DNA of 64,000 nt from a bacterium (GCA_018653315.1 JABIAL010000016.1:3433-67432); one strand, 5' to 3'. Counted from the first letter of the stretch, positions 2,748-58,906 are shown. Notes: generated by a model from the sequence alone, not told the origin. Numbers and translations are program-made.

Positions 2748-5547
2748 TTTTTTATTACTAATTTCTTTTTTGATTAATCTTTTTTTTGGATTTTTTGTAT
2801 TATTAAAGAGAAAATCAGTAGATTATACCAGGTTAATTCTAGGCTTAATTTCAGTTGTAGTAGCCTTTTGGTGCCTTTCTTTATATCTTTATAGATTGAA
2901 TAGCGATGTTTTTCATATTGAATTGTGGGGTAAGATAGCACATATATTTGGTGCACTATTAGCACCATTGTTTTTATTTTTTGTATTTTATTTTATATAC
3001 AAGAATGTTATTAAGCGTATATTATTTAAAATAGTATTACCATCAATTTTATTTATTATAGTTGCTATATTATTATTGTTTACAGATTGGATCATAGGTG
3101 GTGGCTATGTGGTGAATAACGTTAATAATGTAGAATTATTTTTTGGATATTATATTTATATATTTTATTTGGTCATTCATTTTAATTTAGGTTTTATATT
3201 GTTAATAAAAAAATATACACATAGTAACGCATTAGAAAAAGAACAAATAAAATATATTTTAATAGGTACTGTTATTTCTTCATTGGGTGCTATAATTTTT
3301 GATTTAGTATATCCAATTTTTGTTGATTTTTCATTAAATTGGGTGGGTCCAGTTGTTACTATAACCATGGTAGTATCCATGGCATATGCTATCATTAGAT
3401 ATCGTTTAATGAATATTAAATTAATATTGGCACGTAGTATTCTTTATACCATTTTAGTTGGTACTGTGGCTAGTTTTTTTGCTTTTTTGCTTTTTTATAT
3501 TGGTCCGATATTATTTGGAGACACTAACAAAGGGCGTGTTATTAGCACTATTATTAGTTCTATTTTGATTGTTTTACTTTTGGATCCAATCAAGCGAGTT
3601 TGGGCAAAAATAACGGATAGTATTTTTTATAAAGATAAAATTAATTATCAACAAGTATTGCGTCATACTAGTGGTGTTATAGCCCGTGAGATTGATTTAG
3701 ATGATTTATTAGCTAATTTGACTAAGTTATTAGCTACAGAATTGAAGTTGAAACAAACCTTGGTGTTAATGCCAAGAGATAATAATTTCACTTTGATAGC
3801 GAGTTCAGCAGGAGTTAAATCACAGGTACAAATTACTAAACAGACCACTCAATATTTTGTTGATAACCATGGTTTTTTGATTACAGAAGAATTAATAAAA
3901 TTGCATGATGATTTTCATGATCAGAAAAAACAGCAGGAGTTAAATCATGTTATTCAGGAATTAGAACAAATTAAAGCAGAGATGGTGATTCCAATTGTTG
4001 AAGCAGATAAAACAGTAGCTTTGCTTGTTTTGGATCGTAAACTTTCTGGGGATATTTATGATAGTGCAGATATTGATTTTTTCAAGATTTTAGCTCCACA
4101 GATCGCTACGGCTATTGAGAAGTCTAAATTATATGAAGAAGTACAGGAATTAAACCGTGACTTACAAGCCAAGGTGGATGAGCGCACCAAGAGCTTAGAA
4201 CAGGCTAATGCAGATTTAGAATCGCGTAATCGTTATTTGACTACTATGCAGGTAATTCTAAATATGATTAGTCGTAGCTTAGATCTAAAAAAAGTTACCC
4301 AGATGATCGCCGATAGCATTGCTTCTGAGCTTGGCTATATTGGCGGTGTTTTAAGTTTTGTCAACGGCGATGGTAAATTACGAGTGAAGGCAGTAACACA
4401 GAATCATAAGGCCAAAACAGCTATAGATCTTTTGCCAGAAGATATATTTAAGTATAAAGCAGATTTAAAACATGGCTATAATCTAGGGGTGGATACTGTT
4501 TTGTCTGCTAAGATTAATTTTTCTCCCAAAATGACTGATTTTTTCTCACCGCCAGTTGATGAGGGAGTTATCGATAAAATTCAAGAACACCTTGGTGTAA
4601 AAACGATTATTGGCATTCCTATTTTTTCAGAAGATAAAATTATCGGTATTGTTCATTTTTTAGTCGCTGTAGAGAGAGAAAAAATTTCTTCTTTGGATAT
4701 TGAAATGATGACATCTTTGACCAATCAGGTAGGAATAGTTTCTCGTAATTTAGAGCTATACGAAAATTTACAAAAAGTAAATAAAGATTTACATGAAGCT
4801 AATACTCATCTAAAAGTTTTGGATAAAGCAAAGTCAGAATTTTTATCTATTGCCTCTCATCAATTACGTACGCCAATTTCCGCTATTAAAGGCTATCTAT
4901 CTATGATGATTGATGGTGATTTTGGTAAGATTCCAAATAATATCAGCAAATTAATTAGTGATTTATTTGAAAGTGCTTCTCGTTTAGCTAGAACTATTAA
5001 TGTCTTTTTAAATGTTTCTCGTATTGAAGCTGGACGTTTAAAATTAGATAAACATGCTGTGCAAATCGATACTATGGTTACTAGCGTTATCACTGAATTA
5101 CAAAATGCAGCTATTAATAAAGGCATTAAATTGAGTTATATAAAATCAAAGCAAGAAGTTCCCTTGATTTATGCAGATAATGATAAATTGCGAGAAGTAG
5201 TTTTGAATTTAATAGACAATGCTATTAAATATACTCCAAAAGGGTCAATAGAAGTTTTTTTAGAATTTAATGAGCAAGTTTTGACTTTTATTTCTCGTGA
5301 TACAGGCATTGGTATTCACACAGAAGAAGCACGGACTTTGTTTAGAAAATTTGTGCGTGGTGACGGAGTAGCTCAAATTCATACTGGCGGTTCTGGTTTA
5401 GGTTTATTTATTGCTCAGAAGATAGTCAAAGAGCATGATGGTCGTATTTGGGTAGAAAGCGAAGGCAAAGGTAAGGGTAGTGTTTTTAAATTTGAAGTAC
5501 CAATAGCAACTGAAAAGCAAATAGCTGACGCATCAGCCGAAGAATAA
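2734..5547 (+). CDS. sensor histidine kinase: N-terminal 7TM sensor domain, GAF domains, HisKA and HATPase_c
   Basis: Multi-TM N-terminus; H-box SHQLRTPISAIKGY; N-box LIDNAIKYT; G1 DTGIGI; G2 GGSGLGL. No response regulator gene lies adjacent. Confidence 0.85.
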   Translation: MLLINFLLLISFLINLFFGFFVLLKRKSVDYTRLILGLISVVVAFWCLSLYLYRLNSDVFHIELWGKIAHIFGALLAPLFLFFVFYFIYKNVIKRILFKIVLPSILFIIVAILLLFTDWIIGGGYVVNNVNNVELFFGYYIYIFYLVIHFNLGFILLIKKYTHSNALEKEQIKYILIGTVISSLGAIIFDLVYPIFVDFSLNWVGPVVTITMVVSMAYAIIRYRLMNIKLILARSILYTILVGTVASFFAFLLFYIGPILFGDTNKGRVISTIISSILIVLLLDPIKRVWAKITDSIFYKDKINYQQVLRHTSGVIAREIDLDDLLANLTKLLATELKLKQTLVLMPRDNNFTLIASSAGVKSQVQITKQTTQYFVDNHGFLITEELIKLHDDFHDQKKQQELNHVIQELEQIKAEMVIPIVEADKTVALLVLDRKLSGDIYDSADIDFFKILAPQIATAIEKSKLYEEVQELNRDLQAKVDERTKSLEQANADLESRNRYLTTMQVILNMISRSLDLKKVTQMIADSIASELGYIGGVLSFVNGDGKLRVKAVTQNHKAKTAIDLLPEDIFKYKADLKHGYNLGVDTVLSAKINFSPKMTDFFSPPVDEGVIDKIQEHLGVKTIIGIPIFSEDKIIGIVHFLVAVEREKISSLDIEMMTSLTNQVGIVSRNLELYENLQKVNKDLHEANTHLKVLDKAKSEFLSIASHQLRTPISAIKGYLSMMIDGDFGKIPNNISKLISDLFESASRLARTINVFLNVSRIEAGRLKLDKHAVQIDTMVTSVITELQNAAINKGIKLSYIKSKQEVPLIYADNDKLREVVLNLIDNAIKYTPKGSIEVFLEFNEQVLTFISRDTGIGIHTEEARTLFRKFVRGDGVAQIHTGGSGLGLFIAQKIVKEHDGRIWVESEGKGKGSVFKFEVPIATEKQIADASAEE

Positions 5548-8509: not shown

Positions 8510-10087
8510 ATGCCTAAAAATATAAAAAATAAAACAACAAATACACCATTAGTTTTGGTTATTTTGGATGGTTGGGGTTTATGGAAAGAAACAGAAGGCA
8601 ATGCCATTGCTCAAGCCAAGACGCCGGTAATGGATGGCTTGTATAAGCAATATCCTCATACAAAAATAAATGCTTCAGAAAAAGAAGTTGGTTTATCTAA
8701 GAACCAGCCAGGAAATTCAGAAGCAGGACATATGAACATTGGTGCGGGAAGAGTAGTTGAACAAGATTCTATTAGTATTTCTAAGAGCATCAATAATGGT
8801 ACTTTTTTTAAGAATCCAGCTTTTTTGCAAGCAGCTACTCAGGTTACTAAAAATAAATCAGATATTCATCTAATTGGCTTACTATCTGATAAGTCTAGTC
8901 CACATGCTGATAATGATCATATTTTGTCCTTGTTAAGTTTTTTTGTAAATAAAACAGATCGTAATATTTATTTGCATTTGTTTACTGATGGTCGTGATAG
9001 TCCGCAATTTGCAGCTGCTCGTATTTTGGAAAAATATAAAATTATTTTTGATCGCAAACGAATAAAGATAGCTACTATTATGGGTCGTTTTTACGCCATG
9101 GATCGTAAAAAGACTTGGGATCGAACTGAGACTGCCTATAAGGCTATGGTTTTAGGTCAAGGCATAGAAGTGGAAAGTGCATCAGAAGCTGTTAATCAAG
9201 CCTATAATAGAGGAGAGAGCGATGAGTTTATTCAGCCAACTGTTATTGTTAAAAATAAAAAACCAATAGCCACTATAAAAGATAAAGACGCAGTAATATT
9301 CTTTAATTTGCGTTCAGATCGAGCACGACAATTAGCCAAGGTATTTGCTCAAACTAATTTTGAAAAGAAAAATAAAGGAGCTTTTAAACCCAAGAAAAAA
9401 TTTAAGAATTTATTATTTGTAGCTTTGACTGATTTTGGTCCTGATTTGGATAATATCTTAACTGCTTTCCCGGGTATTGATATACCAGAGACATTGCCAT
9501 TTACCTTGCGTGATTTACGTCAATTATATATTGCTGAAACAGAAAAATATGCCCATGTTACTTATTTTTTTAACGGTGGTTATGACCATGTGATAGCCGG
9601 TGAGGACAGAGTAGAAATTCCATCAAAGGATGTTGATTCTTATTCTACAGTGCCCGCTATGAGCACCAAGGAGGTTAATATACATGTTAGGAAAGTCATT
9701 AAGGAAGATAAATATGATTTTATTTGTGTAAATTTTGCTAGCCCAGATATGGTTGCTCATACAGGTGATTTGGTAGCTGGTATAAAAGCAGTGGAAGTAG
9801 TTGATACAGAATTAGGCAAGTTGGTAAATACTGTTTTGAAGAAAAATGGCACTATTATTGTTACGGCTGATCATGGCAATATTGAAGAGATGATAAATTT
9901 AGAAACTAAAGAAATCGATACTAAGCATTCTATTAATCCGGTGCCTTTGATTGTAATAAATCATATAAAATATAAATTAAGAAAAAATGGTAAATTAGCA
10001 GATATTGCACCTACCATTTTAGATATTTTAGACTTGCCAAAACCAAAATTGATGCAAGCAAAATCTTTAATAAAATCGAGAGTATGA
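8510..10087 (+). CDS. gpmI: 2,3-bisphosphoglycerate-independent phosphoglycerate mutase (copy 1)
   Basis: LVILDGWG, catalytic-serine motif PGNSEAGHMNIGAGR, FTDGRDSP and TADHGN. Confidence 0.9.
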   Translation: MPKNIKNKTTNTPLVLVILDGWGLWKETEGNAIAQAKTPVMDGLYKQYPHTKINASEKEVGLSKNQPGNSEAGHMNIGAGRVVEQDSISISKSINNGTFFKNPAFLQAATQVTKNKSDIHLIGLLSDKSSPHADNDHILSLLSFFVNKTDRNIYLHLFTDGRDSPQFAAARILEKYKIIFDRKRIKIATIMGRFYAMDRKKTWDRTETAYKAMVLGQGIEVESASEAVNQAYNRGESDEFIQPTVIVKNKKPIATIKDKDAVIFFNLRSDRARQLAKVFAQTNFEKKNKGAFKPKKKFKNLLFVALTDFGPDLDNILTAFPGIDIPETLPFTLRDLRQLYIAETEKYAHVTYFFNGGYDHVIAGEDRVEIPSKDVDSYSTVPAMSTKEVNIHVRKVIKEDKYDFICVNFASPDMVAHTGDLVAGIKAVEVVDTELGKLVNTVLKKNGTIIVTADHGNIEEMINLETKEIDTKHSINPVPLIVINHIKYKLRKNGKLADIAPTILDILDLPKPKLMQAKSLIKSRV

Positions 10088-11661
10088 ACAGACCACGTCC
10101 AGTTGTTTTAATAGTGTTAGATGGTTTTGGTTTGGCTCCACCGTCACGAGCCAATGCTATTTCTTTGGCTAAAACACCCAATTTTGATAAGTATATGAGT
10201 AATTATCCGGTCATGCCAGTATCTGCTGCTGGAGGAGCGGTTGGTTTAAATTGGGGTGAAATTGGTAATTCAGAAGTGGGTCATTTATCTTTGGGTTCTG
10301 GTACTATTTGTTACCAGAATTTGCCACGGATCACAAAGTCTATTTCCGAGGGTGATTTTTTTTCTAATGAAGCTTTTATTTCTGCTTGCAAACATGTTAA
10401 AGAAAAAGGGTCTAGTTTGCATTTGATGGGTCTGATGTCTTCAGGTGGTGTGCATAGTTTTAATGAGCATCTGTATGCTTTAGTAGAATTAGCTAAGAAA
10501 GAGAAAGTAGAGCGAGTTTATATTCATGCATTTTTGGATGGTCGTGATGTTCCTTATAGTAGCGGTCTAAATTTTATTGCTAAATTGCAGGAAAAATTAA
10601 AAATAATTGGCTTAGGTGCAATAGCTTCAATTAGTGGTCGTTTTTATGCTATGGATCGTGATAATAATTGGGATCGAATAGAGAAAGCATATCGGGCTAT
10701 TGTTGACGGCAAGAATGAAATAAAATATGAAGATCCAGTAGAGGCTATCAAAGCGTCTTATAATCAAGGTATCTATGATGAAGAATTTGTACCAACTGCT
10801 ATCGTTGACGACAGACAGCAGGCTAAAGGTAAGATTCAAGACGGTGATGGTATTATTTTTTTCAATTTTCGTTCAGATCGAGCACGACAATTAACCAAAG
10901 CCTTGGTTTTACCAGGGTTTGAAAAATTTAAATGTCAATATTTTCAAAACTTATTTATGGTTACTATGACAGAATATGAAAAAGATTTACCAGTAACCAT
11001 TGCTTTTCCGCCAATAGTAATAAAAACTCCATTAGCTAAGGTTATTGCTGATGCTGGTTTAAAGCAATTACATACAGCGGAGACAGAGAAATTCGCTCAT
11101 GTTACTTATTTCTTTAATGGTGGTAGTGACATAATTTTTGATAATGAAGACAGAGAATTAATACCATCTCCTCATGTGCCTTCTTATGATCAGAAACCAG
11201 CCATGTCGGCTAGAGAAATTACCAATAAATTAGTGCAGAAAATAAAAGAGGGGAATTATGATTTTATAGTAGTTAATTATGCCAATGCGGACATGGTCGG
11301 ACATACTGGTAATTTGAATGCTACAATTGAAGCAGTAGAGATTCTAGATAAATTAATAGGAGAATTAGTAGATACTATTTTATCTTATAATGGCGTGGCA
11401 TTAATCACAGCTGATCATGGCAATGCAGAAGTTATGTATGATTTACAAACAGGTGAAATCAGCAAAGAACATTCTAATAATCCGGTGCCGTTATTTGTTA
11501 TTGGACAGCAATTTGCTGGTAAGAGTGTCTTGCCTGGTTTGTCGGGTAGAGATCTAAGTCAAATAACGCCAGTAGGTGTATTGGCAGATATAGCGCCAAC
11601 TGTTTTGAAAATCATGGGATTGAAAAAACCAGCCAAAATGACTGGTAGTTCGTTAGTTTAA
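10084..11661 (+). CDS. gpmI: 2,3-bisphosphoglycerate-independent phosphoglycerate mutase (copy 2, tandem paralog)
   Basis: VLDGFG, IGNSEVGHLSLGSGT, FLDGRDVP and TADHGN. It overlaps copy 1 by 4 nt (ATGA) and is 525 aa, the same length as copy 1. Confidence 0.9.
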   Translation: MNRPRPVVLIVLDGFGLAPPSRANAISLAKTPNFDKYMSNYPVMPVSAAGGAVGLNWGEIGNSEVGHLSLGSGTICYQNLPRITKSISEGDFFSNEAFISACKHVKEKGSSLHLMGLMSSGGVHSFNEHLYALVELAKKEKVERVYIHAFLDGRDVPYSSGLNFIAKLQEKLKIIGLGAIASISGRFYAMDRDNNWDRIEKAYRAIVDGKNEIKYEDPVEAIKASYNQGIYDEEFVPTAIVDDRQQAKGKIQDGDGIIFFNFRSDRARQLTKALVLPGFEKFKCQYFQNLFMVTMTEYEKDLPVTIAFPPIVIKTPLAKVIADAGLKQLHTAETEKFAHVTYFFNGGSDIIFDNEDRELIPSPHVPSYDQKPAMSAREITNKLVQKIKEGNYDFIVVNYANADMVGHTGNLNATIEAVEILDKLIGELVDTILSYNGVALITADHGNAEVMYDLQTGEISKEHSNNPVPLFVIGQQFAGKSVLPGLSGRDLSQITPVGVLADIAPTVLKIMGLKKPAKMTGSSLV

Positions 11662-50233: not shown

Positions 50234-51646
50234 ATGAAAAATTACATTAAAGAAACAGTAGATTTAAAAGCAGGCGCTGAAGTCAATTTAAAAGGCTGGG
50301 TGCATGTTTACCGTCGGATGGGTAAAATGGGTTTTATAGAACTGAGAGATTCTACTGGAATCATCCAGGTTGTTTGTGTGCCAGGTGAAATGACAGTTGG
50401 TGCAGATATTTTGGATGATGTTCGTCCAGAGTTTGTCGTCAGCATCAAAGGCGTGATCCAAGAACGCGGGGCAAAACAACAACGCGAAGATCAATTAACT
50501 GGTAAGATAGAAATTTTAGCTAAAGAATTATCAGTTATTTCTGAATCTGAAACGCCACCATTTGAAATCGTCAATGAAGATAGACAAGCCAATGAAGAGC
50601 TTAGATTGAAACATAGATATTTAGATTTACGTCATGAAAGAATGGCTAATAATATCAAGATGAGACACAAAGTCATTCATTTTTTTAGAAATTATTTGAC
50701 AGATAATGGTTTCACAGAAGTTCAAACTCCTATTTTGTCCAAGTCTACACCAGAGGGCGCTAGAGATTATTTAGTACCATCTCGTTTACATAAAGGTAGT
50801 TTTTTTGCTTTACCACAAGCTCCGCAGCAATACAAGCAGCTTTTGATGATCGCTGGCTTAGAAAAATATTTTCAAGTTGCTCCATGTTTTAGAGATGAAG
50901 ATGCAAGGGCAGATAGAAGTCCGGGTGAGTTTTATCAATTAGATATGGAAATGTCTTTCATGACCCAGGAAGAAATAATGGATTTAACTGAAGACATGTT
51001 TACTACTATGGTAGAAAAATTATTTCCAGAAAAGAAAATAACGCAAAAACCTTGGCCTAGATTAGATTATGATGATGTGATGAAGGAGTATAGTACTGAT
51101 AAGCCTGATTTGAGAAAAGATAAAAATGATCCAAATGAATTAGCCTTTGCTTGGACTATAAATTTTCCATTATTTGTAAAACAAACCGATGAAGATAAAT
51201 TTATCGGTGCTGGAGATACTTGGGGACCATCTCATAATATGTTTACTGCTCCAAAAGAAGAGGATGTAAAATTATTAGATAAAAGTCCTGAAAAAGTAAA
51301 ATCCTATCAACATGATTTAGTTTTAAACGGATTTGAGGTTGGTGGAGGAGCTGTTCGTATTCATGATATCAAATTGCAAGAAAAGATTTGGGATTTAATT
51401 GGTTTCTCAGAAGAGCAAAAAAAACAATTTCAACATTATCTGGAAGCTTTTAAATATGGTGTGCCACCACACGGCGGCATTGCTCCCGGTATAGATAGAT
51501 TGTTAATGGTTTTATTGGCTGAGAAAAATCTTAAAGAAGTAACCGCCTTTCCTTTGACTTCTGATGGACATGATCCTTTGATGGATTCACCAAGTGAAGT
51601 TTCTAAAGAACAGCTAGATGAATTAGGTTTAAGTTTGAAGAAATAA
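50234..51646 (+). CDS. aspS: aspartate--tRNA ligase (short form lacking the bacterial GAD insertion)
   Basis: Motif 2 CFRDEDARADRSPGEFYQLDMEMSF is AspRS-type. Motif 3 GGIAPGIDRLLM. 470 aa. Confidence 0.85.
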   Translation: MKNYIKETVDLKAGAEVNLKGWVHVYRRMGKMGFIELRDSTGIIQVVCVPGEMTVGADILDDVRPEFVVSIKGVIQERGAKQQREDQLTGKIEILAKELSVISESETPPFEIVNEDRQANEELRLKHRYLDLRHERMANNIKMRHKVIHFFRNYLTDNGFTEVQTPILSKSTPEGARDYLVPSRLHKGSFFALPQAPQQYKQLLMIAGLEKYFQVAPCFRDEDARADRSPGEFYQLDMEMSFMTQEEIMDLTEDMFTTMVEKLFPEKKITQKPWPRLDYDDVMKEYSTDKPDLRKDKNDPNELAFAWTINFPLFVKQTDEDKFIGAGDTWGPSHNMFTAPKEEDVKLLDKSPEKVKSYQHDLVLNGFEVGGGAVRIHDIKLQEKIWDLIGFSEEQKKQFQHYLEAFKYGVPPHGGIAPGIDRLLMVLLAEKNLKEVTAFPLTSDGHDPLMDSPSEVSKEQLDELGLSLKK

Positions 51647-51654
51647 AATAAATA

Positions 51655-52371
51655 ATGCATAAAATTTCTTTAGAGCAATTTGAAGGTCCCTTGGATCTTC
51701 TCTTGCAACTAATCGAAAAACAAAAATTACAAATCACCGAAATTTCTTTAGCCAAGATTACTGATCAGTACTTGGACTATATAGATAACAGTGAGGATAT
51801 TGCCAGCGAAGAAGTGGCAGATTTTTTGTTAATTGCCTCCAAGCTTATTTATTTGAAATCAAAACATTTATTACCGAATTTAGAATTAGAAGCTGACGAA
51901 GATGTTCAGAATTTAGAAAAACAATTGAAGATTTATCGTCAGTACTATGATGCTAGTAAATATATTCAGAAAATGTGGAATACAGATAAGAGAACTTTTG
52001 TTCGTATTACGCCCTACAAGTTACCGAAAGAAGAAGGTTTTGCACCACCGACAAACATAGAAACTAATATCATGGCGGAAGTTTTCCAGATTGTTTTGAA
52101 TAGAATTCAGAGAATAGTGAATTTACCAAAAGTAATAATGGCTAAGGCTATTTCTATTGGAGAGAAAATTTTACATATCAAAGATTTGATTAAAAATAGT
52201 TCTAAACTTACATTTACTCAGCTGATCAATGGCAAAAAAGATAAGACAGAAGCTGTAGTTAGTTTTTTAGCAATGTTAGAATTAGTAAAACAAAGAGAAA
52301 TCGAAGTCAGTCAAGATTCACTTTTTGCTGAAGTAAATATTTCTCACAATGGCGACGGAATTAAATTTTAG
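51655..52371 (+). CDS. scpA: segregation and condensation protein A
   Basis: The N-terminal FEGPLDLLLQLIEKQKLQITEISLAKITDQYLDYI is the ScpA signature. Confidence 0.8.
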   Translation: MHKISLEQFEGPLDLLLQLIEKQKLQITEISLAKITDQYLDYIDNSEDIASEEVADFLLIASKLIYLKSKHLLPNLELEADEDVQNLEKQLKIYRQYYDASKYIQKMWNTDKRTFVRITPYKLPKEEGFAPPTNIETNIMAEVFQIVLNRIQRIVNLPKVIMAKAISIGEKILHIKDLIKNSSKLTFTQLINGKKDKTEAVVSFLAMLELVKQREIEVSQDSLFAEVNISHNGDGIKF

Positions 52372-52378
52372 ATAACAT

Positions 52379-52897
52379 ATGTCAGAAAACAAAAAAATAT
52401 GCATAACATTTGCAGGTGCAGTTGGTAGTTCAAAAACACCAATAGCTAATTATTTAAGCACGAAATTATCGTTACCTGTTTTTAATAATGATGCTATACG
52501 TTCTGAAATAATAGAGGATTTAGGTGTTTTTAATGATAATGAACATGCCAAAAGACGTAACGCCAGATTAGGGGAAATTATCAAAAATGGGCATTTTTTT
52601 ATTTGTGATGCAAGTATTGATAGAGAATGGACAGATTTTAAGGAGCAATTAATTTCGCATGGTTATGATTTTTTTATTATTAGCATCGACTTAAGTAAAA
52701 ATTTATTAACAAAATTTTACAAGGCTAAAAAATATCTTGAGTCTTTAGAACGTATTGATGAATTAATTCAAGATCATGATAATTTCTTAAGTCAGTATTC
52801 AGATGATATTAATATACATATTACAGATAAAAATTTCATAAATAGAATGCAAATTGCTTACGATGAAGTTAGTAAATACTTAGAATCAAAAGATTAA
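52379..52897 (+). CDS. P-loop NTPase, small-kinase-like (AAA_33/zeta-toxin-like fold); hypothetical
   Basis: Walker A GAVGSSKT at residues 13-20; 172 aa. Inserted between scpA and scpB. Confidence 0.5.
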   Translation: MSENKKICITFAGAVGSSKTPIANYLSTKLSLPVFNNDAIRSEIIEDLGVFNDNEHAKRRNARLGEIIKNGHFFICDASIDREWTDFKEQLISHGYDFFIISIDLSKNLLTKFYKAKKYLESLERIDELIQDHDNFLSQYSDDINIHITDKNFINRMQIAYDEVSKYLESKD

Positions 52898-52934
52898 ATT
52901 TTAAATAAAACATAATCCAATAATCAATAAAATT

Positions 52935-53429
52935 ATGAAAAAAACAATTTTAATTTTAGCGGTCATTATTATTCTAGGCGGTGTCTGGTGGTGGCAACAA
53001 CAATCCCCAGTAACAGAAACACAAGATGAGGTTGCTAAAGCAACAGATAGTTGGTTAACTTACGAGCGCAATGAGGAAAATTTTAGAAATTACCAAATAA
53101 AGTATCCTGATACATGGACATTGGTTAAGAGTGATGAAGTACATTTCGAAATTGAAGATGCTCAAGGGTCTACATTGAGTATCAATGTTCCACCACTTGG
53201 ATTTGGTTTTTTAGCAGAATCCTCAGATGGAATAATAATTGATGGTAATAATGCTAGCATGGTTTATTCGTCTTATGGAAAAAATTCAGGGCACGATGGA
53301 ATAAGTGTACAATTTGAAGATGAGAAATTTAATGATATTCAAATCTATTATGATTTTGATGAAAATGAAGTAGATAAATATACAGCTTTACTAGAAGAAA
53401 TGCTGGCTACTTTTAAATTCGTAGAATAA
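52935..53429 (+). CDS. hypothetical secreted/membrane-anchored protein
   Basis: 164 aa with N-terminal anchor ILILAVIIILGGVWWW. Confidence 0.5.
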   Translation: MKKTILILAVIIILGGVWWWQQQSPVTETQDEVAKATDSWLTYERNEENFRNYQIKYPDTWTLVKSDEVHFEIEDAQGSTLSINVPPLGFGFLAESSDGIIIDGNNASMVYSSYGKNSGHDGISVQFEDEKFNDIQIYYDFDENEVDKYTALLEEMLATFKFVE

Positions 53430-53441
53430 TTTTTATAAAAT

Positions 53442-54014
53442 ATGTCAGAAAACAAAAATTTATCAGTTGTAGAAAGTTTATTGCTCGCTGCGGGCAAGCC
53501 TTTGAGTTTCAAAGAAATTGCTAGCGTGGCAGATGTTGATGTGAATAAAGTCTCGGATTTAGCAGAAAGTTTGCAAGAGAAATACAATAAAGATGAAAGT
53601 GGAATTCATGTAACTGTTAATAATAATAAAATTCAGTTTGTAACTAACACTGTTAATACTGATGCTTTGCAATCTTATCTCAAAGATGAAACAACTGGTG
53701 AGTTGAGCAAGCCTTCTTTGGAGACACTGACTATTGTCGCATATCGACAACCAATTTCTAAAGAAGAATTAGAACAAATTCGTGGCGTAAATTGTAGCGT
53801 AATTTTACGTAATTTATTAATCCGCGGTTTAGTAGAAGCTCGAGAGAATAAAGATGATCTAGTGCCCATGTATTCAGTAACAATAGATTTCTTGCGTCAT
53901 TTAGGAATTGATTCAGTAGAACAATTGCCAGATTTTGCCAAATTAAACAGCGATGAAAATTTACAAGCTTTAATAGAAGGAACTAAGTCAGAAGATAAAC
54001 CAGAAGAAGAATGA
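53442..54014 (+). CDS. scpB: segregation and condensation protein B
   Basis: The wHTH tandem (VESLLLAAGKPLSFKEIA...; ...LETLTIVAYRQPISKEELEQIRGV) is typical of ScpB. Confidence 0.8.
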   Translation: MSENKNLSVVESLLLAAGKPLSFKEIASVADVDVNKVSDLAESLQEKYNKDESGIHVTVNNNKIQFVTNTVNTDALQSYLKDETTGELSKPSLETLTIVAYRQPISKEELEQIRGVNCSVILRNLLIRGLVEARENKDDLVPMYSVTIDFLRHLGIDSVEQLPDFAKLNSDENLQALIEGTKSEDKPEEE

Positions 54015-58712: not shown

Positions 58713-58713
58713 A

Positions 58714-58819
58714 TGGGTCTGGTATCCTTCGGCGTTGCTCAGGATTACCGGACAATAATTTTTATATGGGTCTGGTATCCTTCGGCGTTGCTCAGGATTA
58801 CCGGACAATAATTTTTATA
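58714..58819 (+). repeat. two tandem 53-nt direct repeats whose 5' ends mimic the tRNA-Tyr 5' end (pseudo-tRNA fragments plus duplicated leader/promoter)
   Basis: tgggtctggtatccttcggcgttgctcaggattaccggacaataatttttata occurs at 58714 and 58767. A third phase begins at 58820 with the genuine tRNA-Tyr (gggtcggtaccgaagcgg). Confidence 0.7.
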
Positions 58820-58820
58820 T

Positions 58821-58906
58821 GGGTCGGTACCGAAGCGGTCAAACGGGGCAGACTGTAAATCTGCTGGCTTTCGCCTTCGGGGGTTCGAATCCCTCCCGGC
58901 CCACCA
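58821..58906 (+). tRNA. tRNA-Tyr (anticodon GUA), type II with long variable arm, CCA encoded
   Basis: Close to canonical bacterial tRNA-Tyr: ...ccgaagcggtcaaacggggcagacTGTAaatctgc..., long variable arm, T-loop ttcgaat, acceptor gggtcgg/ccggccc. Confidence 0.85.

Follow-up and report, generated by a model that had tools for sequence, protein, structure and literature searches.

A probable stepwise history of gene insertion between scpA and scpB in a small Patescibacteria clade

Gene order at the scpA–scpB junction

The gene pair scpA–scpB was analysed in a 64-kb stretch of Patescibacteria DNA (GCA_018653315.1, JABIAL010000016.1:3433-67432), referred to here as the window. All coordinates are counted from the window start, and the genes and repeats described at this locus lie on the plus strand. 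The two genes were separated by 1070 nt and two open reading frames (ORFs), and scpA did not lead directly into scpB. The gene scpA (51655..52371) encodes the kleisin subunit of SMC-ScpAB with 238 amino acids (aa) and matched Pfam SMC_ScpA with an E-value of 9.7e-23 and 81.8 bits (cutoff 24.6). The product was 89% identical to its orthologue in L063, the L-numbers denoting comparison loci or contigs from related genomes. The gene scpB (53442..54014) encodes 190 aa and matched SMC_ScpB with an E-value of 1.5e-40 and 138.8 bits (cutoff 27.4). It was followed by rluB and the D-Ala-D-Ala carboxypeptidase gene dacA. The first intervening ORF (52379..52897) encodes a 172-aa P-loop kinase-like protein of an unclassified family with the motif GAVGSSKT. 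The second (52935..53429) encodes a 164-aa protein with an N-terminal hydrophobic anchor, and it lies on a segment of ~530 nt (52911..53439) that was delimited by comparison with L063.

Two pairs of direct repeats accompanied these ORFs. The 19-nt sequence ATATGTCAGAAAACAAAAA was present at 52377..52395, where it now forms the start of the P-loop gene (MSENK), and again at 53440..53458, where it is the native scpB translation start. A second repeat was found by exact-match search at 52360..52375, where ATTAAATTTTA[G/A]ATAA represents the authentic scpA 3' end with the stop codon, and at 52893..52908 (ATTAAATTTTAAATAA). The latter copy holds the P-loop stop codon and would mark the right edge of the original P-loop insertion. 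The whole arrangement, including both copies of the 19-mer at a constant spacing of 1063 nt, was present in 10 contigs of the species that stem from separate samples or assemblies and was therefore not an assembly artefact.

In B. subtilis, scpA and scpB (ypuG–ypuH) are classically tightly coupled. The gene block AsnRS-AspRS-ScpA-ScpB-RluB-DacA-(Sm_multidrug_ex)-TIM-FBA was conserved in related Patescibacteria. Adjacency of scpA and scpB was taken as the ancestral state because it was kept in 20 more distant relatives with the same block, 18 with ScpB 57–67% identical and two at 70%. Gaps of -11 to +6 nt were found in 13 of the 18, and the other five had 27–501 nt of intergenic sequence, several with GC-rich hairpins. 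The two relatives at 70% read TAA, 7 nt and ATGGCAGAAAAT (MAENKN). The window genes are clear ScpA and ScpB family members of the SMC-ScpAB condensin operon, which was mostly tight or overlapping among the 20 relatives; they differ from it in that one or two unrelated genes stand within the pair in the window species and two sister species. On this synteny, the split is a genuine insertion into the scpA–scpB junction, confined to one small clade. No report of an interrupted scpA/scpB pair was found in the literature searched. The original prediction, made from the window sequence, had located scpA, both ORFs, scpB and the two 19-mer copies at coordinates that were all borne out. Its proposal that an insertion splits a normally adjacent pair agreed with the 20 distant relatives; the four-gene arrangement was not common to all relatives, the closest ones having the P-loop gene only.

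GC-rich hairpin elements were repeatedly inserted in the scpA–scpB spacer. In L059, such an element at 4976-5077 contained the stems ATTCCCGU/ACGGGAAU and AUUCCGCAU/GUGCGGAAU, with a folding z-score of -4.2. Others were located in L073 (TATCCCGCCGACGGCGGGATA), in L075 and in L082, where the insert comprised 501 nt. It seems that elements have landed at this junction repeatedly.

Close relatives, direct repeats and the order of events

Three groups of close relatives were compared with the window. L063–L069 were the most similar (ScpB 96%, ScpA 89%, P-loop protein 89%). They held the P-loop gene only, with the start MDNKKICITF, and its stop ran straight into the scpB start. L056–L058 and a 168-kb contig of the Joint Genome Institute (JGI; ScpB 79%, P-loop protein 81–82%) also had the P-loop gene only, starting with MNDKKICITF. 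L059–L062 (ScpB 84–86%) had neither gene and showed a 102-nt spacer with two strong hairpins. The 164-aa gene was detected in none of the three groups. At the point where the window holds the ~530 nt, L063 reads TAAATTTTAAATAA|ATATGTCAG. On this distribution, the 164-aa gene was added after the P-loop gene and in the window species only. The P-loop gene showed 89.7% DNA identity between the window and L063, on par with scpA (88%), scpB (86%) and rluB (87.5%), and was therefore considered orthologous to that of L063 and not re-imported.

The second repeat consisted of 14–16 nt that were duplicated from the scpA stop region and flanked the P-loop gene in the window and in L063. The window contained two exact matches in 64 kb with 0.24 expected. 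In L063, the repeat was ATTAAATTTTAAAT at 5456 and 5983, likewise bracketing the P-loop gene. The downstream copy supplied the P-loop stop codon, and in L063 it continued directly into the spacer and the scpB start, reproducing the ancestral scpA–scpB junction. We infer that this older repeat is the footprint of the original P-loop insertion.

The 19-mer ATATGTCAGAAAACAAAAA occurred exactly twice in 64 kb, at the two start codons, and no third site was found even with up to three mismatches. Over 34 nt, the two sites were still 85% similar. The window contained four exact direct repeats of 19 nt or longer, with 0.18 expected from third-order Markov simulations, and the expectation for such a pair within 2 kb was 0.02. 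The match was not a generic initiation sequence found at many gene starts, because the P-loop gene and scpB were the only two of 45 ORFs of at least 150 aa that began with MSE. The repeat covers positions -2 to +17 of the scpB start, comprising the last two spacer nucleotides, codons 1–5 and two bases of codon 6. The start MSENKNLSV was common to all ScpB orthologues in the clade (including P0121, P0122 and P0123). The identical 19 nt preceded or began scpB in L059 and L063, and L056 deviated at two positions; a second copy was absent in all three. P-loop homologues in unrelated contexts began with MNNKK or MKNKK, and the wider pattern was M[NDK][ND]KK. In place of the 19-mer, the P-loop start read ATGT-ATG-GAT-AAT in L063 and ATGT-ATG-AAT-GAT in L056, and both shared AAATGTATGRATRATAAAAAAATATGT. 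Since the ScpB start is MSENKNLSV throughout the clade and the P-loop homologues start otherwise, MSENK is native to ScpB and the MSENKK of the window P-loop protein is derived. By this comparison, the scpB start was copied onto the P-loop gene secondarily and in this lineage only, giving rise to the 19-mer repeat. Relative to L063, GT-ATG-GAT-AAT was replaced by ATAAC-AT-ATG-TCA-GAA-AAC. The replaced stretch was bounded by the duplicated scpA-end repeat on the left and by a shared A-run on the right, AAAAAAA in the P-loop gene and AAAAA in scpB.

The locus was probably formed by three successive local events in this small Patescibacteria clade, stepwise and not as a cassette. In the ancestral state, scpA and scpB would have been adjacent, typically with 1–7 nt from stop to start. 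The common ancestor of the window species, L063 and L056 would then have acquired a P-loop kinase gene of ~0.5 kb at the scpA stop codon. In the process, ~14–16 nt from the end of scpA (ATTAAATTTTAAAT) would have been duplicated, and the P-loop stop is now provided by the downstream copy. In the window lineage only, ~530 nt with the anchored PsbP/Mog1-fold gene would have entered between the P-loop stop and the scpB start. Also in this lineage only, the scpB start would have been copied onto the P-loop 5' end, replacing ATGT-ATG-GAT-AAT and changing MDNKK to MSENKK. Short-patch ectopic recombination is the most likely mechanism for the copy, as judged from its end-points only. The donor would have been the junction of P-loop end, spacer and scpB start, with the duplicated scpA-end repeat as left anchor and resolution on the right in the A-run common to both genes. 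Equivalently, the A-runs could have undergone unequal crossover, and the stretch between the two scpA-end repeats could then have been deleted.

The proposed events resemble illegitimate or microhomology-mediated insertion, and short-patch ectopic gene conversion or homology-facilitated illegitimate recombination. The insertions are bounded by short direct repeats of host sequence (14–16 nt and 19 nt), the 19-mer ends on the right in a shared A-run and no recombinase gene is located at the locus. They differ from this class in that transposon target duplications are typically shorter than these repeats and in that the second repeat arose after the first insertion, not with it. The insert contained two ORFs only, and no transposase, integrase or terminal inverted repeats were found in it or at its ends. 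This is ordinary genome micro-evolution, unusually well documented, and does not amount to a new type of system. Several comparison genomes make it possible to follow, nucleotide by nucleotide, the entry of genes into a tight operon without mobile-element machinery in reduced Patescibacteria genomes, and the copying of a start region from one gene to another.

Several findings weigh against the stepwise history. No intermediate of the 19-mer recombination was securely observed, and the older repeat was confirmed in two species only, the window species and L063. L059, with ScpB at 84–86%, had no P-loop gene and the 102-nt hairpin element in its place, so that the history needs either a loss or a different tree. 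AspRS (window 50234-51646) shared 68% identity between the window and L063, compared with 93% between L063 and L059. This mosaic structure weakens tree-based arguments and suggests that related populations have often recombined or replaced genes. L091 (ENA ERZ27237606, k141_295896) had the MSENK start without the 164-aa gene. This contig was 100% window-type to the left and 100% L063-type to the right of a 36-nt interval (1257-1293), and a short patch of L063 type was present at 314-440. Being either a chimera of the assembly or a very recent natural recombinant of two co-occurring populations, the contig was given no weight.

Further differences between the related loci were noted. DacA was 86% identical between L059 and L056, compared with ~72% in other pairs, and L063 carried an extra GDPD gene between AspRS and scpA.

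Another course of events would be loss of the P-loop gene via the scpA-end repeats, followed by uptake of P-loop–164-aa–scpB DNA from a close relative. This is considered unlikely, and so are the joins that it would involve: on the right, a homologous crossover inside scpB, and on the left, an illegitimate join at the A-run with the recipient's scpB start left upstream. It would yield exactly the observed structure, the region recombines between related populations and L059 represents a P-loop-free site existing in the clade. Homology-facilitated illegitimate recombination, the mechanism class involved, is documented for naturally competent bacteria and E. coli conjugation (PMC3240628). However, loss and re-acquisition would take more events than the stepwise history and would require a P-loop–164-aa–scpB donor, none of which was observed. 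The P-loop divergence from L063 matches the flanks, and any donor would have been nearly the same lineage.

The original prediction had treated the two genes as one insertion with the 19-bp repeat as its footprint. In such a model, a two-gene unit would have integrated into the scpB 5' end in a single event, with the repeat as target duplication. The 19-mer does bracket both genes exactly, and the left junction (scpA stop, 7 nt and ATGTCAGAAAAC) has the same geometry as the outgroup scpA–scpB junction. A single cassette is nevertheless highly improbable. L063 and L056 hold the P-loop gene alone at the same site, without the 19-mer and with a family-typical N-terminus, and the P-loop DNA has diverged from L063 as much as the flanking genes. 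The 164-aa gene had no close homologue outside the species and was paired with the P-loop gene in no other genome, and the signs of a mobile element looked for above were missing. The prediction thus failed on the single unit and on the 19-mer as an insertion footprint. It was right in deriving the repeat from the scpB initiation region, as supported by MSENKNLSV across the clade versus M[NDK][ND]KK in the P-loop homologues. Independent evolution of the same A-rich start in both genes, in a genome without Shine-Dalgarno sites, is hardly credible: starts are generally A-rich (49% A in codons 2–7) and Shine-Dalgarno sites are depleted, but the identity is exact and in register over 19 nt with the low expectation and lack of near matches given above, none of the other long ORFs starts with MSE and the sister species has a different P-loop start.

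The two inserted genes and their products

More than 160 homologues of the P-loop protein were found, nearly all in Patescibacteria metagenome-assembled genomes and with 50–82% identity. No Pfam, NCBIfam, PADLOC or PDB sequence match reached the threshold, and nothing on this kinase family was found in the literature searched. The closest profiles gave matches below the cutoff. Cytidylate_kin2 was matched by 30 of 40 family members and AAA_33 (PF13671) by six of 40 with a best E-value of 1e-4. For Zeta_toxin (PF06414), one of 40 members matched at an E-value of 0.005, and the window protein did not match. In none of 40 other genomes sampled was the P-loop gene located beside scpA or scpB. Its neighbours varied and included genes for NUDIX, a DNA-alkylation repair protein, Dus, an RRM protein, CYTH, GrpB, an ABC ATPase, DnaJ, Tex and desulfoferrodoxin, among others. 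No recurrent neighbour was found across ~40 loci. An apparent link to UvrA in nine loci was rejected; single-linkage clustering had merged ABC ATPases, and a tblastn search with UvrA left only two independent contexts. In L023, L026, L034 and L035, the homologue was split by a single in-frame stop under translation table 11. The split homologues may reflect a lineage reading UGA as sense (code 25).

The AlphaFold2 model of the P-loop protein was confident, with a predicted local distance difference test (pLDDT) score of 95. In this model, the fold is closest to PSTK and polynucleotide kinases (PNK), not to zeta/PezT. Residue D38 was invariant and R41 was conserved in at least 90% of the family members. 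A strand at residues 34–36 was followed by a helix at 37–48 in the model, which places D38-x-x-R41 directly after strand 2. Polynucleotide kinases have a general-base Asp and an orienting Arg three residues later, a motif defined in PMC3902929. The equivalence of D38/R41 to this dyad was drawn from topology, not from a printed structural alignment. A residue-level alignment to CthPnk or T4 Pnk was discarded, as the profile search of PDB sequences did not reach these enzymes. From the modelled fold and the conserved residues, the protein most probably acts as a phosphotransferase of the PNK/PSTK/AAA_33 type. Lys19 and Thr20 would hold the nucleoside triphosphate with Mg, and Asp38, oriented by Arg41, would activate the substrate hydroxyl. 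A nucleotide or the end of a nucleic acid is the probable substrate.

Two features speak against kinase activity. The Walker A motif (window 52415-52438, residues 13–20) has the family consensus GAVGSSKT or GxxGSSKT in place of the canonical GxxxxGK[ST]. An invariant Ser18 thus takes the position of the Gly that canonically precedes Lys, with Lys19 and Thr20 kept. Such a motif is unusual for P-loop kinases. In addition, the lid-equivalent region at 107–124 contained the conserved residues K117, Y114 and Y119 and no conserved Arg, and the conserved R59, R60, R63, R82 and R156 were located outside it. The protein resembles T4 Pnk, the Clostridium thermocellum Pnkp kinase and archaeal PSTK in fold and in the PNK-like D38/R41 dyad. 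It differs from the PNK/PSTK/AAA_33 kinases in its Ser-for-Gly Walker A motif and in having no obvious arginine-rich lid, and the window locus has no phosphatase, ligase or Hen1 partner. With a deviant Walker A motif, a PNK-like dyad and a confident model, this well-conserved small P-loop kinase family, placed by no library, is a target for biochemistry.

The 164-aa protein is a real N-terminally anchored extracytoplasmic domain with a PsbP/Mog1 fold, a PsbP-like alpha-beta-alpha sandwich. A word-index search returned only a 99%-identical match from the same species. An exhaustive HMMER search detected ~20 remote homologues with 26–39% identity and E-values down to 3e-15, some of them longer and with repeated domains. 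The protein itself matched no Pfam model, PsbP_2 (PF18933) included. Several of the remote homologues matched PsbP_2, of which P0246 alone was above the Pfam cutoff and three others were below it. In fold, the protein resembles extracytoplasmic PsbP/Mog1-fold proteins (Pfam PsbP_2, BT_1490, LpqN). It differs from them by the missing Pfam match and by an identity of at most 39% to any homologue outside the species.

The 164-aa unit was also considered as a diverged tandem copy of the P-loop unit, given their similar lengths (531 vs 534 nt) and the 1063-nt spacing of about twice that size. This was rejected, with no local DNA or protein similarity between the two. The local DNA score was below the shuffle mean, and the global score was only ~2.6 sd above it. 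The similar lengths were treated as coincidence.

According to the original prediction, the P-loop protein had a zeta-toxin- or AAA_33-like kinase fold and might form a toxin/antitoxin-like or cell-wall-modifying pair with its neighbour. The P-loop kinase fold was borne out by the model, with PSTK and PNK as the nearest relatives; the zeta toxin assignment was not, and AAA_33 was matched below the cutoff only. A toxin/antitoxin or envelope-modifying pair of the zeta/UNAG-kinase type is very improbable. The zeta/PezT toxins (UNAG kinases), which occur with epsilon/PezA, share the general P-loop kinase fold with an Asp base, one family member gave the sub-threshold Zeta_toxin match and PsbP/Mog1-fold proteins include the type VI secretion system immunity proteins TplEi and Tsi3. 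However, the pairing was limited to one species, and across ~40 loci the neighbours of the P-loop gene differed and no conserved small antitoxin gene was adjacent, unlike in the zeta/epsilon systems. PADLOC gave no match. The 164-aa protein is predicted to be extracytoplasmic, but the kinase lacks a signal peptide.

Expression of the four genes and other features of the window

No terminator was found between scpA and dacA. Separate promoters or terminators for the inserts were considered and rejected, with promoter-like sites at chance frequency and no terminator. The inserts were only slightly more AT-rich than their surroundings. A Shine-Dalgarno-like 4-mer was located upstream of three of the 45 long ORFs, compared with a background of 14%. 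The A content of codons 2–7 given above compares with 34% genome-wide. These counts suggest a depletion of Shine-Dalgarno sites in the genome. Neither the chimeric P-loop start (-4.9 kcal/mol) nor the scpB start (-2.9 kcal/mol) was predicted to be structured, and the native P-loop start of L063, at -7.8 kcal/mol, was no more stably folded than shuffled sequence. All four genes probably share one transcript, and their translation probably begins at A-rich starts free of structure. There is a slim chance that the P-loop kinase was recruited as an SMC-ScpAB accessory on the same mRNA, for example with PNK-like activity on DNA ends or nucleotides, and that the scpB-start copy was selected for equal initiation strength. 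If true, this would be natural expression tuning by a transplanted initiation region in bacteria without Shine-Dalgarno sites.

Outside the scpA–scpB locus, an Rfam scan of the window returned only tRNAs. Upstream of tRNA-Tyr (58821-58906), two tandem copies of a relatively GC-rich 53-nt unit (ATGGGTCTGGTATCCTTCGGCGTTGCTCAGGATTACCGGACAATAATTTTTAT) were located at 58713-58818. The start of the unit was similar to the tRNA-Tyr 5' end (ATGGGTCGGTACC), and the tandem copies could represent either a duplicated leader or what is left of an integration at this tRNA. Two tandem 525-aa ORFs (8510-10087 and 10084-11661) shared an exact 24-nt repeat (9311 and 10870) and are probably paralogues.

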